A DNA stretch of 64,000 bases, from NCBI GenBank assembly GCA_964572965.1, contig CAZNHL010000001.1:58109-122108 (forward strand), given 5' to 3'. This DNA comes from an uncultured Bifidobacteriaceae bacterium. Its GTDB lineage: Bacteria; Bacteroidota; Bacteroidia; Cytophagales; UBA9547. Made by a program: the position numbers and the translations under genes. Every line of letters begins with the position of its first letter. The stretch's first letter is position 1. Under the pieces are notes generated by a model that did not search any database, was not told where the DNA came from, and saw only the letters and a list, made by a program, of their open reading frames with translations. Below, one piece after another: positions 11,260 through 45,531 of the stretch.

Positions 11260-11796
11260 ATGGCAGTAAAAATCAGATTAGCCAAAAGAGGTCGTAAAGC
11301 ATTAGCTTTATACGATATCGTAGTAGCAAACTCAAGTTCACCACGTGATGGTCGTTTTATCGAGAAAATCGGTTACTACAATCCAAACACTAATCCAGCA
11401 ACAGTAGTATTGAAAGCTGATAAAGCTCTTGATTGGTTGTTGAAAGGAGCTCAACCTACAGATACAACAAGATCATTGCTGTCTCATCAAGGCTTGATGT
11501 TCAAAAAACACTTACAAATAGGTGTTAACAAAGGAGCTATCACTCAAGAAGCTGCTGATAAGAAATTTGAAGCATGGTTGGCTGATAAAACTAAATCTGT
11601 TGAATCTGCTAAAGCAGGTCTTGTTAAAAAGAAAGAAGACGCTAAGAAAGCTGCTTTTGCTGCTGAAACAAAAGTAAAAGAAGCTCGTGCTGAAGCTATC
11701 AAAATTAAAAACACTCCGGTTGCTGAAGCTCCTGCTCCTGCTGTTGAAGAGGCTTCAGAAGAAGCTGCTGCTCCTGCAGAAGAGTCTGCTGAATAA
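11260..11796 (+). CDS. rpsP: 30S ribosomal protein S16 with Ala/Glu/Lys-rich C-terminal extension
   Basis: Starts [46 protein letters not shown]. At 178 aa it has the long C-terminal tail common in Bacteroidota. Confidence 0.95.
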
Positions 11797-11817
11797 GCAC
11801 AAACAAACTAATTACAG

Positions 11818-22404: not shown

Positions 22405-22456
22405 ACTTCCCGTTTAGCTTATTAGAATTAAATAAGCTAAACGGGAAGTTTTATTT
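22405..22456 (+). terminator. Strong rho-independent terminator after the AsmA-family gene
   Basis: Perfect 19-bp stem ACTTCCCGTTTAGCTTATT (22405-22423) with AATAAGCTAAACGGGAAGT (22431-22449), 7-nt loop, followed by TTTTATTT. Confidence 0.85.
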
Positions 22457-27322: not shown

Positions 27323-27359
27323 AAGAAAGGGTTCCGCATATAATGCGGAACCCTTTCTT
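27323..27359 (-). terminator. Perfect palindromic terminator downstream of dnaN (potentially bidirectional)
   Basis: AAGAAAGGGTTCCGCAT (27323-27339), loop ATA, ATGCGGAACCCTTTCTT (27343-27359), giving a 17-bp perfect stem. The flanking sequence on both sides is A/T-rich. Confidence 0.8.
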
Positions 27360-27377
27360 CTTATATATTATGTAATA

Positions 27378-28715: not shown

Positions 28716-29408
28716 ATGCGAATTGATATCATTACCTGTTTACCTCGCCTGTTAGAAAGCCCTTTTAATCAGTCTATTTTGCACCGTGCCCAAACAAAAG
28801 GACTGGCTGAAGTCAATTTTCATGACATCAGGGATTATTCTACCAATAAACAGCGATCAATTGATGATTATGCCTTTGGTGGCGGTGCGGGTATGGTCAT
28901 GATGATTGAACCAATTGCGCTTTGCATTGAAAAGCTTAAGGCTGAAAGAAATTATGATGCCATCATGTATATGACTCCTGACGGAAAAACATTTAACCAG
29001 TCGATGGCCAACCATTTTTCAATGTTTGAAAATATCATTATCCTGTGCGGACATTATAAAGGAGTCGATCAACGCGTACGCGATATTTACATTACACATG
29101 AAATCAGTATCGGCGATTTTGTATTGTCTGGTGGCGAACTAGCAGCTGCTGTAGTAGCCGACGCTATAATCCGCTTAATACCCGGAGTGCTCTCAGACGA
29201 AACTTCTGCCCTTACCGATACTTTCCAGGATGATTTATTAGCACCTCCGGTGTATACAAGGCCAGCCGACTATAAAGGACACAAAGTTCCGGACATACTG
29301 CTTTCCGGACATGAAAAGGAAATTGAAAAATGGCGTAGCGAGCAGGCACTTCAAAGAACCCAAGAACGCAGACCTGATTTGTATAAGAAAATTAGCGGGG
29401 AAGAGTAA
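28716..29408 (+). CDS. trmD: tRNA (guanine37-N1)-methyltransferase TrmD
   Basis: Starts [10 protein letters not shown], and contains [36 protein letters not shown] and [11 protein letters not shown]. Confidence 0.95.
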
Positions 29409-29409
29409 A

Positions 29410-29468
29410 GTTAGATGTTAGATGTTAGATGTTAGATGTTAGATGTTAGATGTTAGATGTTAGATGTT
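29410..29468. repeat. Tandem heptanucleotide array (GTTAGAT) x8 plus a partial unit
   Basis: Eight perfect GTTAGAT units at 29410-29465, starting 2 nt after the trmD stop codon. Confidence 0.95.
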
Positions 29469-29493
29469 TTTACAAAATATTCTTTCAAAAAAT

Positions 29494-29549
29494 ATCTCAT
29501 ATCTCATATCTCATATCTCATATCTCATATCTCATATCTCATATCTCAA
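29494..29549. repeat. Tandem heptanucleotide array (ATCTCAT) x7 plus one 6/7 unit
   Basis: Perfect units at 29494-29542 and ATCTCAA at 29543-29549. The array ends directly against the nuoA stop codon (29550-29552). Confidence 0.95.
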
Positions 29550-30026
29550 TTAAGAATACTTCTCATTTACTTTTGCATATAAGTCAGCTGGAATATTTGA
29601 CTTATAGTTTGTAGCAACAGGTTCGGGTTTTACCCAATCCAGGTAACCTTTTACCCATGCATAAGCTAAGCCTAAAGCCAGCATAACTACAAATAAACCT
29701 ACCTCTGCCAAAGAAAACCAGCCCCAAAGACCATTTGTTTCTTTAATTAAATATGCATCTCCAAAAACTGTTGCCCAAGGAAATAACAATACCAATTCAA
29801 CATCAAACAATATGAAAATCAGCGCAACAATATAAAAGCGCGAATTAAATTGACCCCAGGCACTGCCTTCTGTATCTTCACCACACTCATATGAGCTTAG
29901 CTTTTCTGCATTTGGCTTATCAGTACGAAGCAACCAGGCAAGGCTCATCATGGCCATGATGAATAACACTGCTCCAATAATAAAGATCAGTGTTACACCA
30001 AAATCACTCAGTTCGTTTGCTTTCAT
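29550..30026 (-). CDS. nuoA: NADH:quinone oxidoreductase subunit A-like protein (orphan, no adjacent nuoB-N)
   Basis: 158 aa with three TM helices. It carries the YECGEDTEGSAWGQFNSRFYIVALIFILFDVELVLLFPWA signature of NuoA/ND3, plus a C-terminal extension of about 30 aa. Confidence 0.8.
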   Translation of the reverse strand: MKANELSDFGVTLIFIIGAVLFIMAMMSLAWLLRTDKPNAEKLSSYECGEDTEGSAWGQFNSRFYIVALIFILFDVELVLLFPWATVFGDAYLIKETNGLWGWFSLAEVGLFVVMLALGLAYAWVKGYLDWVKPEPVATNYKSNIPADLYAKVNEKYS

Positions 30027-41383: not shown

Positions 41384-41520
41384 AGTAAAAATAGCTTTGA
41401 GCTAAAATTAAAGTATTAAACCATTTGTTCCTAAGTCTTCGCTGTCATTGTTGGTTACCCTTCTTTTTAGTTTCTACGAATTCTATCCACCCCTTTATAG
41501 TTTCCGGCATTACCTGCTGT

Positions 41521-41567
41521 TCGATTTTCCCACAATAAGCGGTAAAAGCTTATTGTGGGAAAGTCGA
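41521..41567. repeat. Near-perfect 20-bp inverted repeat (hairpin) in a long non-coding region
   Basis: TCGATTTTCCCACAATAAGC (41521-41540), loop GGTAAAA, GCTTATTGTGGGAAAGTCGA (41548-41567), with 19/20 complementary. No flanking T-run on either strand. Confidence 0.8.
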
Positions 41568-41627
41568 ATAGCGGTTGTCGAGTAGTGGTTAGTAAACATC
41601 TTTCACTTAAAGTGAGGGCTTCGGTTT

Positions 41628-41821
41628 TTAATAACCAGCAAACCTCCAGACCAGCCACCACGAGTAAGCATCAGTTGCAGTGCAGATGATGGGGACAGCT
41701 TCGACAGGCTTAGCTACCAAATTTCGACGAGCCCAATTACCATGGCCATACATAAATAATCAGCATCTTTAACCGCAAACTCTCCGTATACTTTGAAAGT
41801 TTTGCCGTAGCCGGTATTTTT
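41628..41821 (-). pseudogene. Possible decayed remnant of an MBL-fold (UPF0173-like) hydrolase gene
   Basis: Minus-strand frames read [23 protein letters not shown].. and, after a frame shift, ..[43 protein letters not shown]. This loosely resembles GK.ILIDPF...DAD.IL.THGHGDH..D..EIAK...A.VI of metal-dependent hydrolases, but the His ligands are lost. There is no start codon and the fragment is interrupted. Confidence 0.3.
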
Positions 41822-41842: not shown

Positions 41843-43354
41843 ATGAAGTTACATAAAGTAAGGGTATACCCATCCAAAGAGAAATTGGCCAAAGAAGATC
41901 AATTGGCCTGGAAGCTGGCTGCCGTAGCCACAGACAACGTCACAATAAGTGCAGAGGTTGTTGATATGGTCATCAACCGAATTATAGATAATGCTTCTGT
42001 AGCAGTTGCTTCTCTTAACAGAACTCCCGTTGCCAATGCACGTGCACAGGCACTGGCACACCCACGCAGCCATGGCGGTGCACTTGTATTTGGCATGCCC
42101 AACGACCAACTGTTCCATGCTGAATGGGCTGCCTGGGCAAACTGTACGGCAGTGCGTGAACTGGATTTTCATGATACTTTTCTGGCGGCAGACTATTCTC
42201 ACCCCGGTGACAGCATTCCTGCTGTGCTGGCAGTGGCTCAACAATTGAATAAAAATGGCCTGGAACTCCTCAAAGGCATTGTAGCTTCTTATGAAGTGCA
42301 TGTGGACCTTGTAAAGGCTATTTGCCTCCACGAACATAAAATAGATCACGTAGGACATCTTTGTCCGGCACAGGCTGCGGGCGTAGGTGCTTTGCTGAGC
42401 CTGCCTACTGAGGTGGTTTATCAGGCTATACAGCAGGCCTTGCATGTATCTATCAGCACAAGACAGTCGCGTAAGGGCGAAATCTCAAGCTGGAAGGCTT
42501 ATGTACCCGCACATGGCGCTAAACTCGCCATTGAAGCGGTTGACAGGGCCATGCGCGGTGAGAAAAGCCCGTCACCGATCTATGAAGGTGAAGATTCTGT
42601 AATTGCCTGGATCCTGGACGGTCCGGATGCTTCATATGAAATTCCACTGCCCGAGCCAGGTGAAGAGAAAAGAGCTATTCTGGAGACTTATACTAAAGAG
42701 CACTCCGCAGAATATCAGTCGCAGGCTTTGATTGACCTTGCATTCAGGATGAAACCAAAGGTTGGCAATTTTGCCGATGTGAAAGACGTTTTAATTGAGA
42801 CGAGTCACCATACGCATTATGTAATTGGTACAGGTTCTAATGATCCTCAGAAGTTTGACCCGACGGCAAGCCGCGAAACGCTTGATCATTCTATCATGTA
42901 TATTTTTGCTGTAGCGCTTCAAGACGGTGAGTGGCATCATGTACGCAGCTACGAACCTGCAAGAGCACAACGAACTGACACAGTAGAACTCTGGAAGAAA
43001 ATCCGTACTGAGGAAAAGCCTAAGTGGACTGAAATGTACCACGCCACTGATCCGGCAAAAAAGGCTTTCGGAGGAAAAGTGGTTATTACCATGAAGGATG
43101 GTACTGTGATAGAAGATGAACTGGAAAGAGCCAATGCACACCCTGCAGGAGCAAGGCCCTTCAAGCGTGAACAATATATCATGAAGTTTGATCAACTGAC
43201 AGAAGGCATCATTTTCAAAGAAGAGAGAGACCGCTTCCTGGAACTGGTACAACGCTTGCCAGGTCTGACAGCGCATGAAGTACAACAGCTGAATATTCAG
43301 ATAGACCAGAAAGAGTTACTGAATAATAAAGCTGATATGAAGGGGATATTTTAG
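41843..43354 (+). CDS. prpD: 2-methylcitrate dehydratase (MmgE/PrpD family)
   Basis: 503 aa with a PrpD-like sequence throughout (e.g. [46 protein letters not shown]). It lies upstream of prpB and prpC. Confidence 0.85.
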
Positions 43355-43424
43355 TGATTGGTAATTAGGGAATAGTGATTAGGGGATAAACACACTAACA
43401 CTTTCATACATAAACACATAAGTC
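43354..43424. repeat. Heptad-periodic prpD-prpB spacer (5 G-initiated G/U/A-rich heptads + 5 A/C-rich heptads)
   Basis: GTGATTG GTAATTA GGGAATA GTGATTA GGGGATA | AACACAC TAACACT TTCATAC ATAAACA CATAAGT. That is 70 nt running from the last base of the prpD stop codon to 1 nt before the prpB ATG. AGTGATTAG (43374-43382) can pair with CTAACACT (43395-43402). Confidence 0.6.
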
Positions 43425-44324
43425 ATGATCATCAATAGCACAGACCCTCGAGACAAACGCAAAGTACTCAGAGCAGAGCTAAAGTCTGGGAAGTTACTAC
43501 AGTTTCCGGGGGCTTATAATGCGCTGGTGGCTATGCTGATTGAGCAGAAGGGATTTGACGGAGTTTATTGTTCGGGTGCTGTGATTGCCAACTCACTTGG
43601 GCTGGCTGATGTCGGGCTTACTACACTGACTGAAGTCGGGGCTTTTTCTTCGGCCATTGCCAAAGTAACAAGCCTGCCGACTATTGTAGATATTGATACC
43701 GGCTTCGGCGAAACGCTGAATGTGGTTCGTACCATACGTGAGCTGGAGTACCTGGGTATTGCTGGTTGTCATATTGAAGATCAGGTAAATCCAAAACGCT
43801 GTGGACATCTTGATAACAAGGAACTGGTTTCAGTTTCTGGTATGGTTCAAAAAATCAATGCTGCCGCAAAAGCGAAACAGGATGATAATTTTCTATTGAT
43901 TGCACGGACGGATGCCCGGGCAAGTGAAGGATTGGATAAAGCCATTGAAAGAGCAAAAGCATATGTAGATGCCGGAGCCGAAATGATATTCCCTGAAGCC
44001 ATGAATGACGAAAAGGAATTTGAAGCTTTCCGGAAAGCCATAGATGTACCTCTGCTTGCAAACATGACAGAGTTTGGCAAGTCAAAGCTATTGACTAAAA
44101 AGCAACTGGAAAATCTTGGTTATAACCTGATTATCTATCCGGTAAGCACACAACGGCTGGCCATGTTTGCCGTAGAAAAAGGACTGGATAGTCTGAAATC
44201 CTCCGGCAGTCAGGAAAGTTCAGTAGCAGAAATGCAAACCCGTAAAAGACTCTATGAGATACTTGGCTACGAAGACTATAATGACTTCGACCAGGGAATT
44301 TATAATTTTAGTATTGAGTCGTGA
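43425..44324 (+). CDS. prpB: Methylisocitrate lyase
   Basis: 299 aa of the isocitrate lyase/PEP mutase family. It shows LQFPGAYNALVAMLIEQKGFDGVYCSG, VDIDTGFG, GCHIEDQVNPKRCGH and LIARTDA. Confidence 0.9.
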   Translation: MIINSTDPRDKRKVLRAELKSGKLLQFPGAYNALVAMLIEQKGFDGVYCSGAVIANSLGLADVGLTTLTEVGAFSSAIAKVTSLPTIVDIDTGFGETLNVVRTIRELEYLGIAGCHIEDQVNPKRCGHLDNKELVSVSGMVQKINAAAKAKQDDNFLLIARTDARASEGLDKAIERAKAYVDAGAEMIFPEAMNDEKEFEAFRKAIDVPLLANMTEFGKSKLLTKKQLENLGYNLIIYPVSTQRLAMFAVEKGLDSLKSSGSQESSVAEMQTRKRLYEILGYEDYNDFDQGIYNFSIES

Positions 44325-44405
44325 GTCATGAGTAGTGAGTTGCGGGAACTACCAAAGCAAAACTCACCACTATTTCTCAATACTCAATACCCACTACTCA
44401 ATACT
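44310..44405. repeat. Inverted pair of degenerate heptad arrays (TGAGTNN)n / (ACTCANN)n spanning the prpB-prpC junction
   Basis: Left arm: AGTATTGAGT CGTGAGT CATGAGT AGTGAGT (44310-44340, overlapping the last prpB codons). Then a 21-nt spacer. Right arm: ACTCACC ACTATTT CTCAAT ACTCAAT ACCCACT ACTCAAT ACT (44362-44405). The outer 10 bp, AGTATTGAGT/ACTCAATACT, are perfectly complementary. Confidence 0.8.
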
Positions 44406-44412
44406 ACCCCAT

Positions 44413-45531
44413 ATGGCTGACAAAATCATTGCCCCAAAAGGACTGGAAGGTGTGGTTGTAGACAACTCCGCTATCTCCAAAGTGATGCCCGAAACCAACT
44501 CGCTGGTATATCGCGGTTATGCTGTTCAGGATTTGTGCGAGCATTGTTCATTTGAGGAAGTAGCTTATCTGCTTACTCATGGCGAGCTACCTGACCTTGC
44601 CCAATTGCGCGGTTTCCTTCATAAAGAAAGAAGCCATAGAAATATATCTGCACCACTTAAAACCACCATCAAACTCTTTCCTAAAAAGGCACATCCAATG
44701 GACAGCCTTCGTACAGGCGTCAGTTTTTTGGCAATGGAGGATAGCCGGATATGGGAAAGTGATGAAGTAACCAATCAGGATAAATTTCTGTTTTTATTAG
44801 CAAAAATTCCGACCATCATTGCTGCTTGCTATCATCATCATCATGGCTCTATTTTTATCCCTGCAAGGGAAGATTTGAGCATAGCTGCTAACTTCTTTCA
44901 TATGTGTTTTGGCAAAGTTCCAAGTGATGATATTGTGAAAGCATTTGAAGTCTCTCTGATCCTTTATGCTGAACACAGTTTTAATGCTTCAACTTTTACT
45001 GCCAGGGTTGTTAGTTCTACCAAATCAGACTTGTACAGTGCTGTAGTAGCGGCCATTGGTTCCCTGAAAGGGCCTTTGCATGGAGGAGCCAATGAACAGG
45101 TAATGCACATGATGCGCGAAATTGGTGATCCGGCCAGGGCCCGTGACTGGATGCTGGATGCCCTGAAAAACAAGAAAAAAGTAATGGGCTTTGGGCATAG
45201 GGTATACCGCAATGGTGACTCTCGGGTACCAACAATGAAGAAATATGCCCAGAAAGTAGCTGAAGCACGCGGAGAACATCGTTGGATGGACATGTATGAA
45301 ATACTTGAACAAACAATGGTAGAGGAAAAAGGTATTTACCCTAACCTGGACTTTCCGGCAGGACCGGCCTACTACATGATGGGTTTTGATATAGACATGT
45401 TCACTCCAATATTTGTAATGAGCCGTATTACAGGCTGGTGCGCTCATATCATGGAGCAAAATGCTGACAATCGTCTTATCAGGCCACTAAGCAATTATGT
45501 GGGTCAGGCACAAAGGGAAATTAAAAGATAG
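44413..45531 (+). CDS. prpC: 2-methylcitrate synthase / citrate synthase family
   Basis: The start was trimmed to MADKIIAPKGLEGVVVD (ATG at 44413). Citrate synthase signatures are present: LILYAEHSFNASTF, GSLKGPLHGGANE, GFGHRVYRNGDSR. Confidence 0.9.
   Translation: MADKIIAPKGLEGVVVDNSAISKVMPETNSLVYRGYAVQDLCEHCSFEEVAYLLTHGELPDLAQLRGFLHKERSHRNISAPLKTTIKLFPKKAHPMDSLRTGVSFLAMEDSRIWESDEVTNQDKFLFLLAKIPTIIAACYHHHHGSIFIPAREDLSIAANFFHMCFGKVPSDDIVKAFEVSLILYAEHSFNASTFTARVVSSTKSDLYSAVVAAIGSLKGPLHGGANEQVMHMMREIGDPARARDWMLDALKNKKKVMGFGHRVYRNGDSRVPTMKKYAQKVAEARGEHRWMDMYEILEQTMVEEKGIYPNLDFPAGPAYYMMGFDIDMFTPIFVMSRITGWCAHIMEQNADNRLIRPLSNYVGQAQREIKR

Follow-up and report, generated by a model that had tools for sequence, protein, structure and literature searches.

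Paired heptanucleotide arrays between convergent trmD and nuoA-like genes of a Bacteroidota genome and the long imperfect hairpin predicted for the trmD 3′ end

Introduction

Heptanucleotide arrays are the commonest long simple-sequence repeats in many bacteria. Two such arrays, facing one another, occupy the 141 nt that separate the stop codon of trmD (plus strand) from that of a convergent nuoA-like gene (minus strand) in a 64,000-nt stretch of DNA (hereafter the window). The host belongs to the Bacteroidota and represents an isolated Cytophagales-like lineage, its TrmD and NuoA relatives being from the Cytophagales. The locus raises the question of whether the arrays are a 3′-end structure that acts on the transcript of either gene, or products of replication slippage that are tolerated between two stop codons. 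The anatomy and folding of the gap, the corresponding loci in relatives, and the distribution, orientation and pairing of the array family in other genomes are examined here in turn.

Results

Two perfect heptamer arrays adjoin the trmD and nuoA-like stop codons

The trmD gene, encoding a tRNA m1G37 methyltransferase, occupies 28716..29408 on the plus strand (ORF list; NCBIfam NF000648, 301.9 bits against a cut-off of 220), and its TAA stop codon (29406-29408) ends 1 base ahead of the first GTTAGAT unit. The C-terminal ...GEE of TrmD and the stop codon after it are kept in relatives with 87% identity. The 5′ arm (29410-29468, plus strand) was delimited by Tandem Repeats Finder (TRF) as 8.4 copies of GTTAGAT (period 7, 100% matches, score 118); its eight perfect units are all identical, lie in sense orientation relative to trmD, and introduce stop codons in all six reading frames (TAG on the plus strand, TAA on the minus strand). 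The arm is followed on the plus strand by an A/T-rich spacer, TTTACAAAATATTCTTTCAAAAA (29469-29491), which measures 23 nt by the TRF limits rather than the 25 nt originally given. The 3′ arm (29492-29549, minus strand) was detected on the plus strand as 8.1 copies of ATATCTC (TRF 29492-29548; period 7, 100% matches, score 114). When set in the ATCTCAT phase, it consists of seven perfect units (29494-29542) and one variant, ATCTCAA (29543-29549), and the copy number of eight given for each array agrees with the TRF values. On the minus strand the same arm reads TTGAGAT followed by seven ATGAGAT units, in sense orientation to the nuoA-like gene and directly after its stop codon.

That stop codon (29550-29552, minus strand; TTA on the plus strand) directly adjoins the last repeat unit. 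The gene itself (29550..30026, minus strand; ORF list) encodes a 158-aa protein of Pfam family PF00507 that matches NuoA models only, all of them below the cut-off (90.8 against 163; NCBIfam). It is solitary, with no nuoB adjacent to it, and homologues of 155-179 aa are common in the Cytophagales. The sequence, the TRF output and the ORF list thus agree with the three-part anatomy, with both arrays abutting stop codons, that had been proposed for the gap.

The arrays are non-coding, lying between the trmD and nuoA stop codons, and 7, the length of their unit, is not divisible by 3. They contain at least three head-to-tail copies of a 7-nt unit, at a count that was reached by no shuffled sequence, and their tandem copies, non-coding position and period-7 preference are those by which heptanucleotide LSSR are recognised. 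They are the sole strong period-7 segments within the 64 kb, and no further run of two GTTAGAT or ATCTCAT units with up to 2 mismatches was found elsewhere in the window, where 0.7 would be expected by chance. No further copies were found in the 64-kb window, so that within this stretch the arrays do not look like a dispersed element of the REP/BIME/MITE type, of which many near-identical copies would be expected in one genome.

The trmD-sense RNA, and neither the opposite RNA nor the DNA, folds beyond expectation

In order to assess the predicted hairpin, the region 29400-29560 was folded on both strands. The plus-strand RNA formed one hairpin of ~59 bp with a free energy of -49.3 kcal/mol (z = -6.0), while shuffled sequences averaged -27.6 kcal/mol and none of 200 was equally stable. 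This trmD-sense hairpin is A/U-rich and is made of 6-bp segments parted by single U.C mismatches, with 7 internal mismatches overall, which matches the long, periodically mismatched stem that had been predicted. The minus-strand RNA reached -25.9 kcal/mol (z = -0.24), no better than shuffled sequence, and with DNA parameters neither strand outperformed its shuffles (z = -0.05 and +2.0), ruling out a DNA cruciform or DNA hairpin. The only structure that stands out is therefore that of the trmD-strand RNA. Each heptad contributes 5 Watson-Crick pairs, 1 G.U pair and 1 U.C mismatch on the plus strand, compared with 5 of 7 positions paired on the minus strand, and the pairing rule of the original prediction (two mismatches per heptad on the minus strand) was confirmed. 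In the minimum free energy (MFE) structure the ends of the spacer (GUUUUU and AAAAAU) lengthen the stem and fix its register, leaving the centre as the loop. Because these A/T spacer ends pair as well, a single register holds ~1.0 of the probability at equilibrium, and the suggestion that the stem slips by 7 nt is not borne out under equilibrium conditions. Stability increases linearly with copy number, with a gain of about -6 kcal/mol per heptad pair.

A strand bias toward the trmD transcript, as had been expected, is evident in the folding energies, but it is largely a matter of composition. Five of the seven positions of the 5′ arm unit are G or T and none is C, so that most transitions in a partner arm produce G.U pairs on the plus strand; the bias is no independent evidence of selection on the trmD RNA. 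A search against Rfam 15 gave no gathering-score match in the window except a tRNA-Val, and none at E <= 1 in 29300-29700.

The complementarity of the two arms was also less remarkable than had been supposed. A random heptamer unit would pair with GTTAGAT equally well (at least 6 of 7 positions paired, at least 5 of them Watson-Crick) in 7% of cases on the plus strand and in 8% on either strand, and the observed complementarity is only modestly improbable by chance. It follows largely from arrays of the same family facing each other: 4 of the 7 pairs are automatic because both arms carry the AGAT/ATCT core. Each arm is internally perfect, and the 2 bases that stand in the way of exact complementarity are the same in all units, which indicates that each arm expanded separately, from a different seed unit.

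The gap lacks a canonical terminator, and trmD relatives carry one in the same position

A terminator scan of 29409-29549 found no terminator-like site. The sequences 3′ of the stem are AAUUAAGAAUAC on the plus strand and CUUUACUCUUC on the minus strand, neither with a U run, and the stem (~59 bp, A/U-rich, 7 mismatches) is far from the short G+C-rich stem with a 3-8 nt loop of an intrinsic terminator. A canonical intrinsic terminator is ruled out on these grounds, the missing U-tract among them, in agreement with the view that the element does not look like one. Efficient intrinsic termination by the hairpin is doubtful because it has no U-tract, is A/U-rich and carries a mismatch every 7 nt. 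Ordinary perfect G+C-rich hairpins are found elsewhere in the window, for example at 22405-22450 and 27325-27360.

In two relatives whose TrmD is 87% identical (L120 and L121), trmD converges on a DUF2147 gene and the region contains no heptads. A perfect G+C-rich hairpin fills the spacer of ~48 nt; it begins no more than a few bases from the conserved stop codon of trmD and has, in L120, an A run on one side and a T run on the other. Judged by its sequence, this hairpin is a bidirectional terminator of the classical kind, and the heptad hairpin takes the same place, from stop codon to stop codon. An orthologous trmD spacer with heptads is thus ruled out in the 87%-identity relatives, and no second genome with a trmD/nuoA heptad spacer was found among the TrmD and NuoA relatives, of which the closest NuoA is 66% identical.

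Compared with a bidirectional intrinsic terminator, the trmD/nuoA element is alike in position, in its span from stop to stop as in the trmD relatives, and in forming a stable RNA stem-loop. It differs in having no U-tract, in being A/U-rich, in its length (~59 bp as opposed to 5-20 bp) and in being stable on one strand only.

Heptad sites in the prp operon are looser and turn over quickly

Similar heptad architecture had been reported at two further sites of the window, and of these the one in the prpB-prpC spacer (44310-44405, plus strand) is real, although imperfect and looser (TRF scores 38 and 46). Its hairpin has one arm of about four (nnnTGAG) units, overlapping the prpB stop codon TGA (44322-44324), and another of about five (CTCAnnn) units that stops 8 nt ahead of the likely prpC ATG (44414). 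It folds at -34.7 kcal/mol on the plus strand and at -44.4 kcal/mol on the minus strand, the minus strand being the better. The prpD-prpB spacer (43354-43424, plus strand) shows a degenerate 7/8-nt periodicity (TRF 64% matches, score 30; MFE -11.3 kcal/mol), and its membership in a heptad class is doubtful.

In the nearest relative (L288, PrpB 82% identical) the two spacers are 86 and 99 nt long and contain other, non-heptad hairpins; its 86-nt prpD-prpB spacer has only GTGATT-type motifs in common with the window, and this genome contains nothing that corresponds in sequence to the window's operon spacers (43355-43424 and 44325-44413). More distant relatives have prp spacers of 0-35 nt. Conserved heptad spacers in the prp operon are ruled out by the similar length and different sequence in L288, and the differing spacers among relatives point to fast turnover rather than to conserved structured RNAs.

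The arrays belong to a slippage-prone family that is common in Bacteroidota

Arrays of at least three GTTAGAT units were found in at least 119 species genomes when one genome per species was scanned. Bacteroidota account for 97 of 119 (82%) among the matches listed, including Chryseobacterium, Flavobacterium, Kordia, Aquimarina, Taibaiella, Chitinophagaceae, Bacteroidales and others, and the carriers outside this phylum, again among the matches listed, are mostly cyanobacteria, Acidobacteriota, Firmicutes and Candidatus Portiera. Arrays of at least three ATCTCAT units are present in at least 120 metagenome contigs. The idea of a genome-specific class of element is contradicted by these numbers, and also by the published heptamer arrays of Bacteroidetes (PMC4679880) and hairpin-forming heptamers of cyanobacteria (PMC2670836). 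Several loci per genome can carry GTTAGAT arrays, as in Taibaiella (L010, L083 and L110) and in one MAG (L016, L038, L070 and L095). Beyond the seed arrays, 0.91 Mb of sequence contained 21 perfect period-7 arrays of diverse units, compared with 0-6 for other periods from 4 to 12.

No special enrichment of the GTTAGAT unit was seen in an IMG/VR control, in which GTTAGAT gave 15 matches and ATGAGAT 8 while composition-matched permutations gave 10 and 13. Since the permutations are about equally frequent, a sequence-based favouring of GTTAGAT cannot be claimed. Among in-phase variant units beside the seed arrays, positions 4-6 (AGA) are kept in 79-90% and positions 1, 2 and 7 are the most variable, an estimate of position-wise conservation that is biased by the 4-of-7 identity filter with which the variants were collected. 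GTTAGAT arrays contain ATGAGAT and TTGAGAT units, while in ATGAGAT arrays the units GTTAGAT, ATTAGAT and TTTAGAT are found. These mutual variants indicate that both arms in the window are members of one array family, RT[TG]AGAT, placed in convergent orientation.

Copy number differs between related species at four pairs of orthologous loci: 6 and 9 copies at L021 and L114 (flanks 85-89% identical), 4 and 5 at L049 and L096 (98%), 4 and 6 at L069 and L073 (about 95%), and 8 and 3 at L059 and L077 (left flank 94%). Such differences are a signature of replication slippage, and the arrays nevertheless stay in place at all four pairs, showing persistence over time. The proposal that the site is prone to slippage is in this way borne out for the array family, in other genera. 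For the trmD/nuoA arrays themselves, a slippage origin can be inferred from the perfect identity of their units together with the copy-number differences in the family, and we consider it very probable that the element consists of two heptanucleotide arrays that were generated by slippage and belong to a family common in Bacteroidota.

Family arrays are oriented relative to gene ends and recurrently have a partner arm

All 81 of the GTTAGAT arrays with full flanks are intergenic and, read as NNNAGAT, are placed at the left-hand end of the gap between genes. GTTAGAT arrays that follow a stop codon by no more than 20 nt are in sense orientation at 27 loci and antisense at 4, and ATGAGAT arrays so placed at 16 and 3. 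Within 20 nt before a start codon, GTTAGAT arrays read ATCTAAC in the sense of the gene at 12 loci and the opposite at 2, and the ATGAGAT set shows the same pattern (6 against 2). Pooled over both units the counts are 43 to 7 after stop codons and 18 to 4 before start codons; they are approximate, given the crude ORF calls and the inclusion of some orthologous loci. Tabulating array positions against stop codons, as had been suggested, thus revealed an association with gene ends, and both arrays of the window obey the common rule of the family, sense orientation directly after the stop codon of their own gene. The orientation on the start-codon side may be explained by avoidance of upstream ATGs, since AGAT-sense units contain ATG and ATCT-sense units do not.

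Partner arms were identified by comparing duplex energies between the array and its flanks with those for shuffled flanks (z < -3, within 150 nt). A complementary arm lies downstream at 15 of 91 GTTAGAT loci and upstream at 2, and downstream at 11 of 94 ATGAGAT loci and upstream at 6. Downstream partner arms are thus present at 26 of 185 loci overall (about 12-16%), and the order AGAT...ATCT is found at 26 loci as opposed to 8 with the reverse. A partner arm is lacking in about 85% of family arrays, and many arrays lie upstream of a separate, normal terminator, which shows that they do not need a hairpin in order to exist. The heptad hairpin is, however, a recurrent architecture rather than a one-off, as partner arms are seen at many loci. 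In a Porphyromonadaceae genome (L102) a convergent-gene spacer is made up entirely of (GTTAGAT)4, a loop of 4 nt and ATCTAAA-ATCTAAC-ATCTAAA, and to judge from sequence it is a direct analogue of the trmD/nuoA spacer. At L005 and L011 the 3′ arm adjoins the next start codon. In Bergeyella (L042, L087 and L091), (GTTAGAT)4 pairs with TTCTAAT-type heptads with one mismatch per heptad, and three species with 87-95% identity in the flanks retain the hairpin.

The equal copy number of the two arms had been taken as characteristic of the class. Arm lengths across the 26 paired loci are weakly correlated (Spearman 0.40, p = 0.046; Pearson 0.19), and the 5′ arm is usually the longer; this rules out equal copy number as a design rule, and the match of 8 and 8 copies at trmD/nuoA may be a coincidence.

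Discussion

Relation to known heptamer repeats and 3′ structures

The units of the cyanobacterial STRR are CCCCAGT, TTGGTCA and CAACAGT. In filamentous cyanobacteria, 7-bp STRR that can fold into hairpins are located between hupS and hupL and upstream of hoxW, where roles in transcript stability, translational coupling or termination have been proposed and function is unproven (PMC2670836). The trmD/nuoA element resembles them in consisting of intergenic tandem 7-nt units that can be folded into a hairpin, as its RNA does, and the prpB-prpC spacer of the window has the same within-operon placement. The differences are that the units are unrelated, that the phylum is another (Cytophagales-like Bacteroidota), and that the trmD/nuoA hairpin lies between convergent genes and has a mismatch in each heptad. 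With GTTAGAT and ATCTCAT as units and a host from the Bacteroidota, the element falls outside the STRR family, although by analogy the STRR hairpins would be its closest known counterparts.

Heptanucleotide LSSR of prokaryotes were described by Mrazek et al. in 2007, as summarised in PMC4679880 and PMC4692102. In so far as these summaries describe them, they share with the present arrays perfect head-to-tail 7-nt intergenic units, a preference for period 7, a patchy phylogeny, an origin attributed to polymerase slippage and a copy number that varies between relatives. In the same summaries they appear as single direct repeats, with neither hairpin-forming inverted pairs nor a fixed orientation to stop or start codons, which sets the trmD/nuoA arrays apart from them. 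TAACTGA and other heptamer direct repeats have been reported from intergenic regions of Beggiatoaceae, cyanobacteria and five Bacteroidetes (MacGregor 2015, PMC4679880); long arrays, with other heptamers, occur in Gramella, Aequorivita and Elizabethkingia, and the slippage hypothesis is recounted and protein binding proposed in that study. As in the present family, one heptamer recurs in numerous intergenic regions, has an orientation relative to the genes and borders directly on their ends (PMC4679880). The TAACTGA repeats have another unit, lie mainly just upstream of start codons and are reported with only one inverted set, whereas the trmD/nuoA arrays are paired and both follow stop codons, and therefore do not belong to the TAACTGA network. 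For Nostoc, a preprint describes heptamer repeats that lie close to promoters and start codons and have regulatory effects (10.1101/2022.06.06.494920). No description of paired heptad hairpins or of orientation rules in Bacteroidota was found in the open-access literature.

With regard to function, the trmD/nuoA element can be compared with 3′ stem-loops of other kinds. Chloroplast 3′ IRs and bacterial REP elements are 3′ stem-loops that stabilise mRNA without efficient termination; neither is built from tandem repeats, and REP elements are dispersed multi-copy sequences. The likeness is a stem-loop in the 3′ UTR that would block 3′ exonucleases, and the difference from REP is that the trmD/nuoA heptamer unit is found once in 64 kb. 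An mRNA stabiliser of the 3′ IR or REP type is, by this analogy, the functional counterpart that we think most likely.

A candidate 3′-end structure and its alternatives

We tentatively favour, at something close to an even chance, a reading in which the arrays act as a long imperfect hairpin at the trmD 3′ end, in place of a normal bidirectional terminator. The element would comprise two RT[TG]AGAT arrays, each in sense orientation after its own stop codon (GTTAGAT after trmD, ATGAGAT after nuoA), that would arise and change length by replication slippage. Since the two arrays point towards one another and have the AGAT/ATCT core in common, RNA transcribed from trmD can form the ~59-bp hairpin. 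This hairpin would provide the trmD mRNA, and to a lesser degree the nuoA mRNA, with a 3′-end structure that would pause RNA polymerase or terminate it inefficiently and would block 3′-to-5′ exonucleases. These transcript effects are what the observed anatomy, fold, strand asymmetry, family distribution, polarity and slippage suggest.

The main rival, which we regard as somewhat unlikely, is that the arrays are a neutral by-product, slippage junk tolerated between two stop codons, in which case the hairpin would be accidental and would have no effect on the transcript. Chance pairing goes some way towards such an outcome, in that a random partner unit pairs as well in 7-8% of cases and the common AGAT core already gives 4 of 7 pairs. 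The same can be said of the about 85% of family arrays without a partner arm, of arm lengths that are barely correlated, and of composition-matched permutations that form arrays about as often in viral contigs (IMG/VR); moreover, the trmD/nuoA spacer is not conserved in the relatives examined, and the prp operon spacers have no counterpart in L288. What a neutral origin leaves unaccounted for is the presence of partner arms at 26 of 185 loci at z < -3, far above unrelated sequence and in the order seen at 26 loci against 8, the strict orientation of arrays relative to stop and start codons, and the persistence of arrays at orthologous loci whose flanks are merely 85-95% identical. The trmD/nuoA spacer, in addition, contains no other 3′-end signal.

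Further explanations concern the units themselves, their number or their reality. As a multivalent binding array, the RT[TG]AGAT units would bind a protein as RNA or DNA, for example a 3′ UTR RNA-binder, and the hairpin would be irrelevant or in competition with the putative protein binding. We consider this quite improbable: the strict orientation relative to gene ends, the several loci per genome with GTTAGAT (the three Taibaiella loci L010/L083/L110 and the four MAG loci L016/L038/L070/L095) and the similar proposals for TAACTGA repeats (PMC4679880) and Nostoc heptamers (10.1101/2022.06.06.494920) would fit it, but the unit occurs once only in the 64-kb window and the IMG/VR permutations are as frequent as the unit itself. 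The retention of the AGA core beside variable flanking positions would also be expected of a binding site, but it is an estimate biased by the 4-of-7 identity filter. It is very unlikely that gain or loss of heptads, at ~6 kcal/mol per pair, heritably adjusts trmD or nuoA expression, even though stability is linear with copy number and copies vary at orthologous loci of related species, for the arrays lie downstream of both genes and not in a promoter, 5′ UTR or coding sequence, and trmD is a housekeeping gene. Their location 3′ of both genes likewise does not fit a phase-variable contingency locus, in which the repeat would sit within a coding sequence or a promoter/5′ UTR and changes in unit number would turn a gene on or off. 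That the arrays or their copy numbers were made by the assembler is hardly credible; short-read assemblies can collapse or expand repeats, and contigs often break at such arrays (several loci end there), but each array is 59 nt, below typical read length, and lies inside a long contig, and identical architectures are present in hundreds of independent assemblies, isolate genomes included.

None of the explanations tested covers the orientation rules (43 against 7 and 18 against 4), the arm order (26 against 8) and the orthologous persistence. The Bacteroidota are a phylum without Shine-Dalgarno-led initiation. A broader, and in our estimate unlikely, reading is that RT[TG]AGAT arrays are a Bacteroidota-wide post-transcriptional module of slippage-adjustable hairpins that span the whole intergenic RNA. 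Such a module may have a G/U-rich sense arm after the stop codon and an ATG-free ATCTnnn arm before the next start codon or convergent stop codon, and its hairpin could govern 3′-end formation, RNA processing, for instance by RNase III, or the coupling of translation. If this module exists, the trmD/nuoA hairpin would be the cleanest example known.

Under the favoured reading of a trmD 3′-end hairpin as under its neutral rival, the trmD/nuoA locus offers a simple test case for distinguishing RNA 3′-end structures set by copy number from tolerated slippage products. What deserves most attention is the polarity seen across the family, together with the repeated occurrence of partner arms. Should the orientation rules fail in a census, the element would be an ordinary microsatellite pair; if these rules and the 12-16% of partner arms hold genome-wide, they would point to a layer of RNA structure between the genes of Bacteroidota that has so far gone undescribed.

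GTTAGAT arrays at orthologous loci and within single genomes

Different species, of Chryseobacterium and Bergeyella among others, also carry tandem arrays of GTTAGAT, the heptamer unit of the array 3′ of trmD, at loci that are orthologous to one another, with flank identity of 85-98%. Copy numbers at these loci, which were identified in a scan of one genome per species, were 6 and 9 (L021/L114), 4 and 5 (L049/L096), 4 and 6 (L069/L073), and 8 and 3 (L059/L077) in orthologous pairs, and were unchanged (4/4/4) in the orthologous trio L042/L087/L091.

GTTAGAT arrays were found at three separate loci in Taibaiella chishuiensis (L010, L083 and L110) and at four in one Bacteroidetes metagenome-assembled genome (MAG; L016, L038, L070 and L095). 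Recurrence of GTTAGAT at three to four loci per genome would not be expected from heptamers picked at random. The reduced genome of the endosymbiont Candidatus Portiera aleyrodidarum contains 8-kb stretches (L055 and L058) rich in differing heptamer arrays, with the units TTTTAGC, TTGTTGA, GTTGAGG, GGTTGTA, GTTGTTA and CCACTAA.

A palindromic element of approximately 30 nt, CTTGCCACGTGCACTGGCGTGGTGTT, interrupts GTTAGAT arrays at the junction GTTAGA/TGAT. Two copies are present in L011 (at about 1895-1931 and 2017-2055; 36-nt match, 100%), and the MAG that carries L011 has the element at another locus too, downstream of the L034 array. Small dispersed repeats have reportedly been seen inside Nostoc heptamer arrays, and the element in L011 and L034 resembles them.

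Other features of the window

The nuoA-like gene (29550-30026, minus strand), flanked by an AsmA-like gene and the convergent trmD, is solitary, with no nuoB following it. Its product scored below every NCBIfam NuoA cut-off (90.8 versus 163 bits), and Cytophagales commonly encode homologues of 155-179 aa. A separate tandem repeat with a 33-nt period (11725-11798; 2.1 copies, 78% matches) contains a GCTCCT hexamer repeat.

The stretch at 41500-41640, approximately 200 nt upstream of prpD, has the most stable local fold of the window, at -65.6 kcal/mol over 140 nt; there, a perfect hairpin (TTTCCCACAATAAGC...GCTTATTGTGGGAAA) is followed by two copies of a 14-nt tandem repeat, GTCGAATAGCGGTT. Expansion of the intergenic spacers of the prpD-prpB-prpC block (43355-43424 and 44325-44413) is limited to the lineage of the window and its nearest relative. 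The block itself (41843-45531) may have been horizontally acquired, because its G+C content is 0.42-0.47 versus 0.35-0.39 in the surrounding sequence and the top match of PrpD is the 'high-GC Gram-positive' PrpD model.
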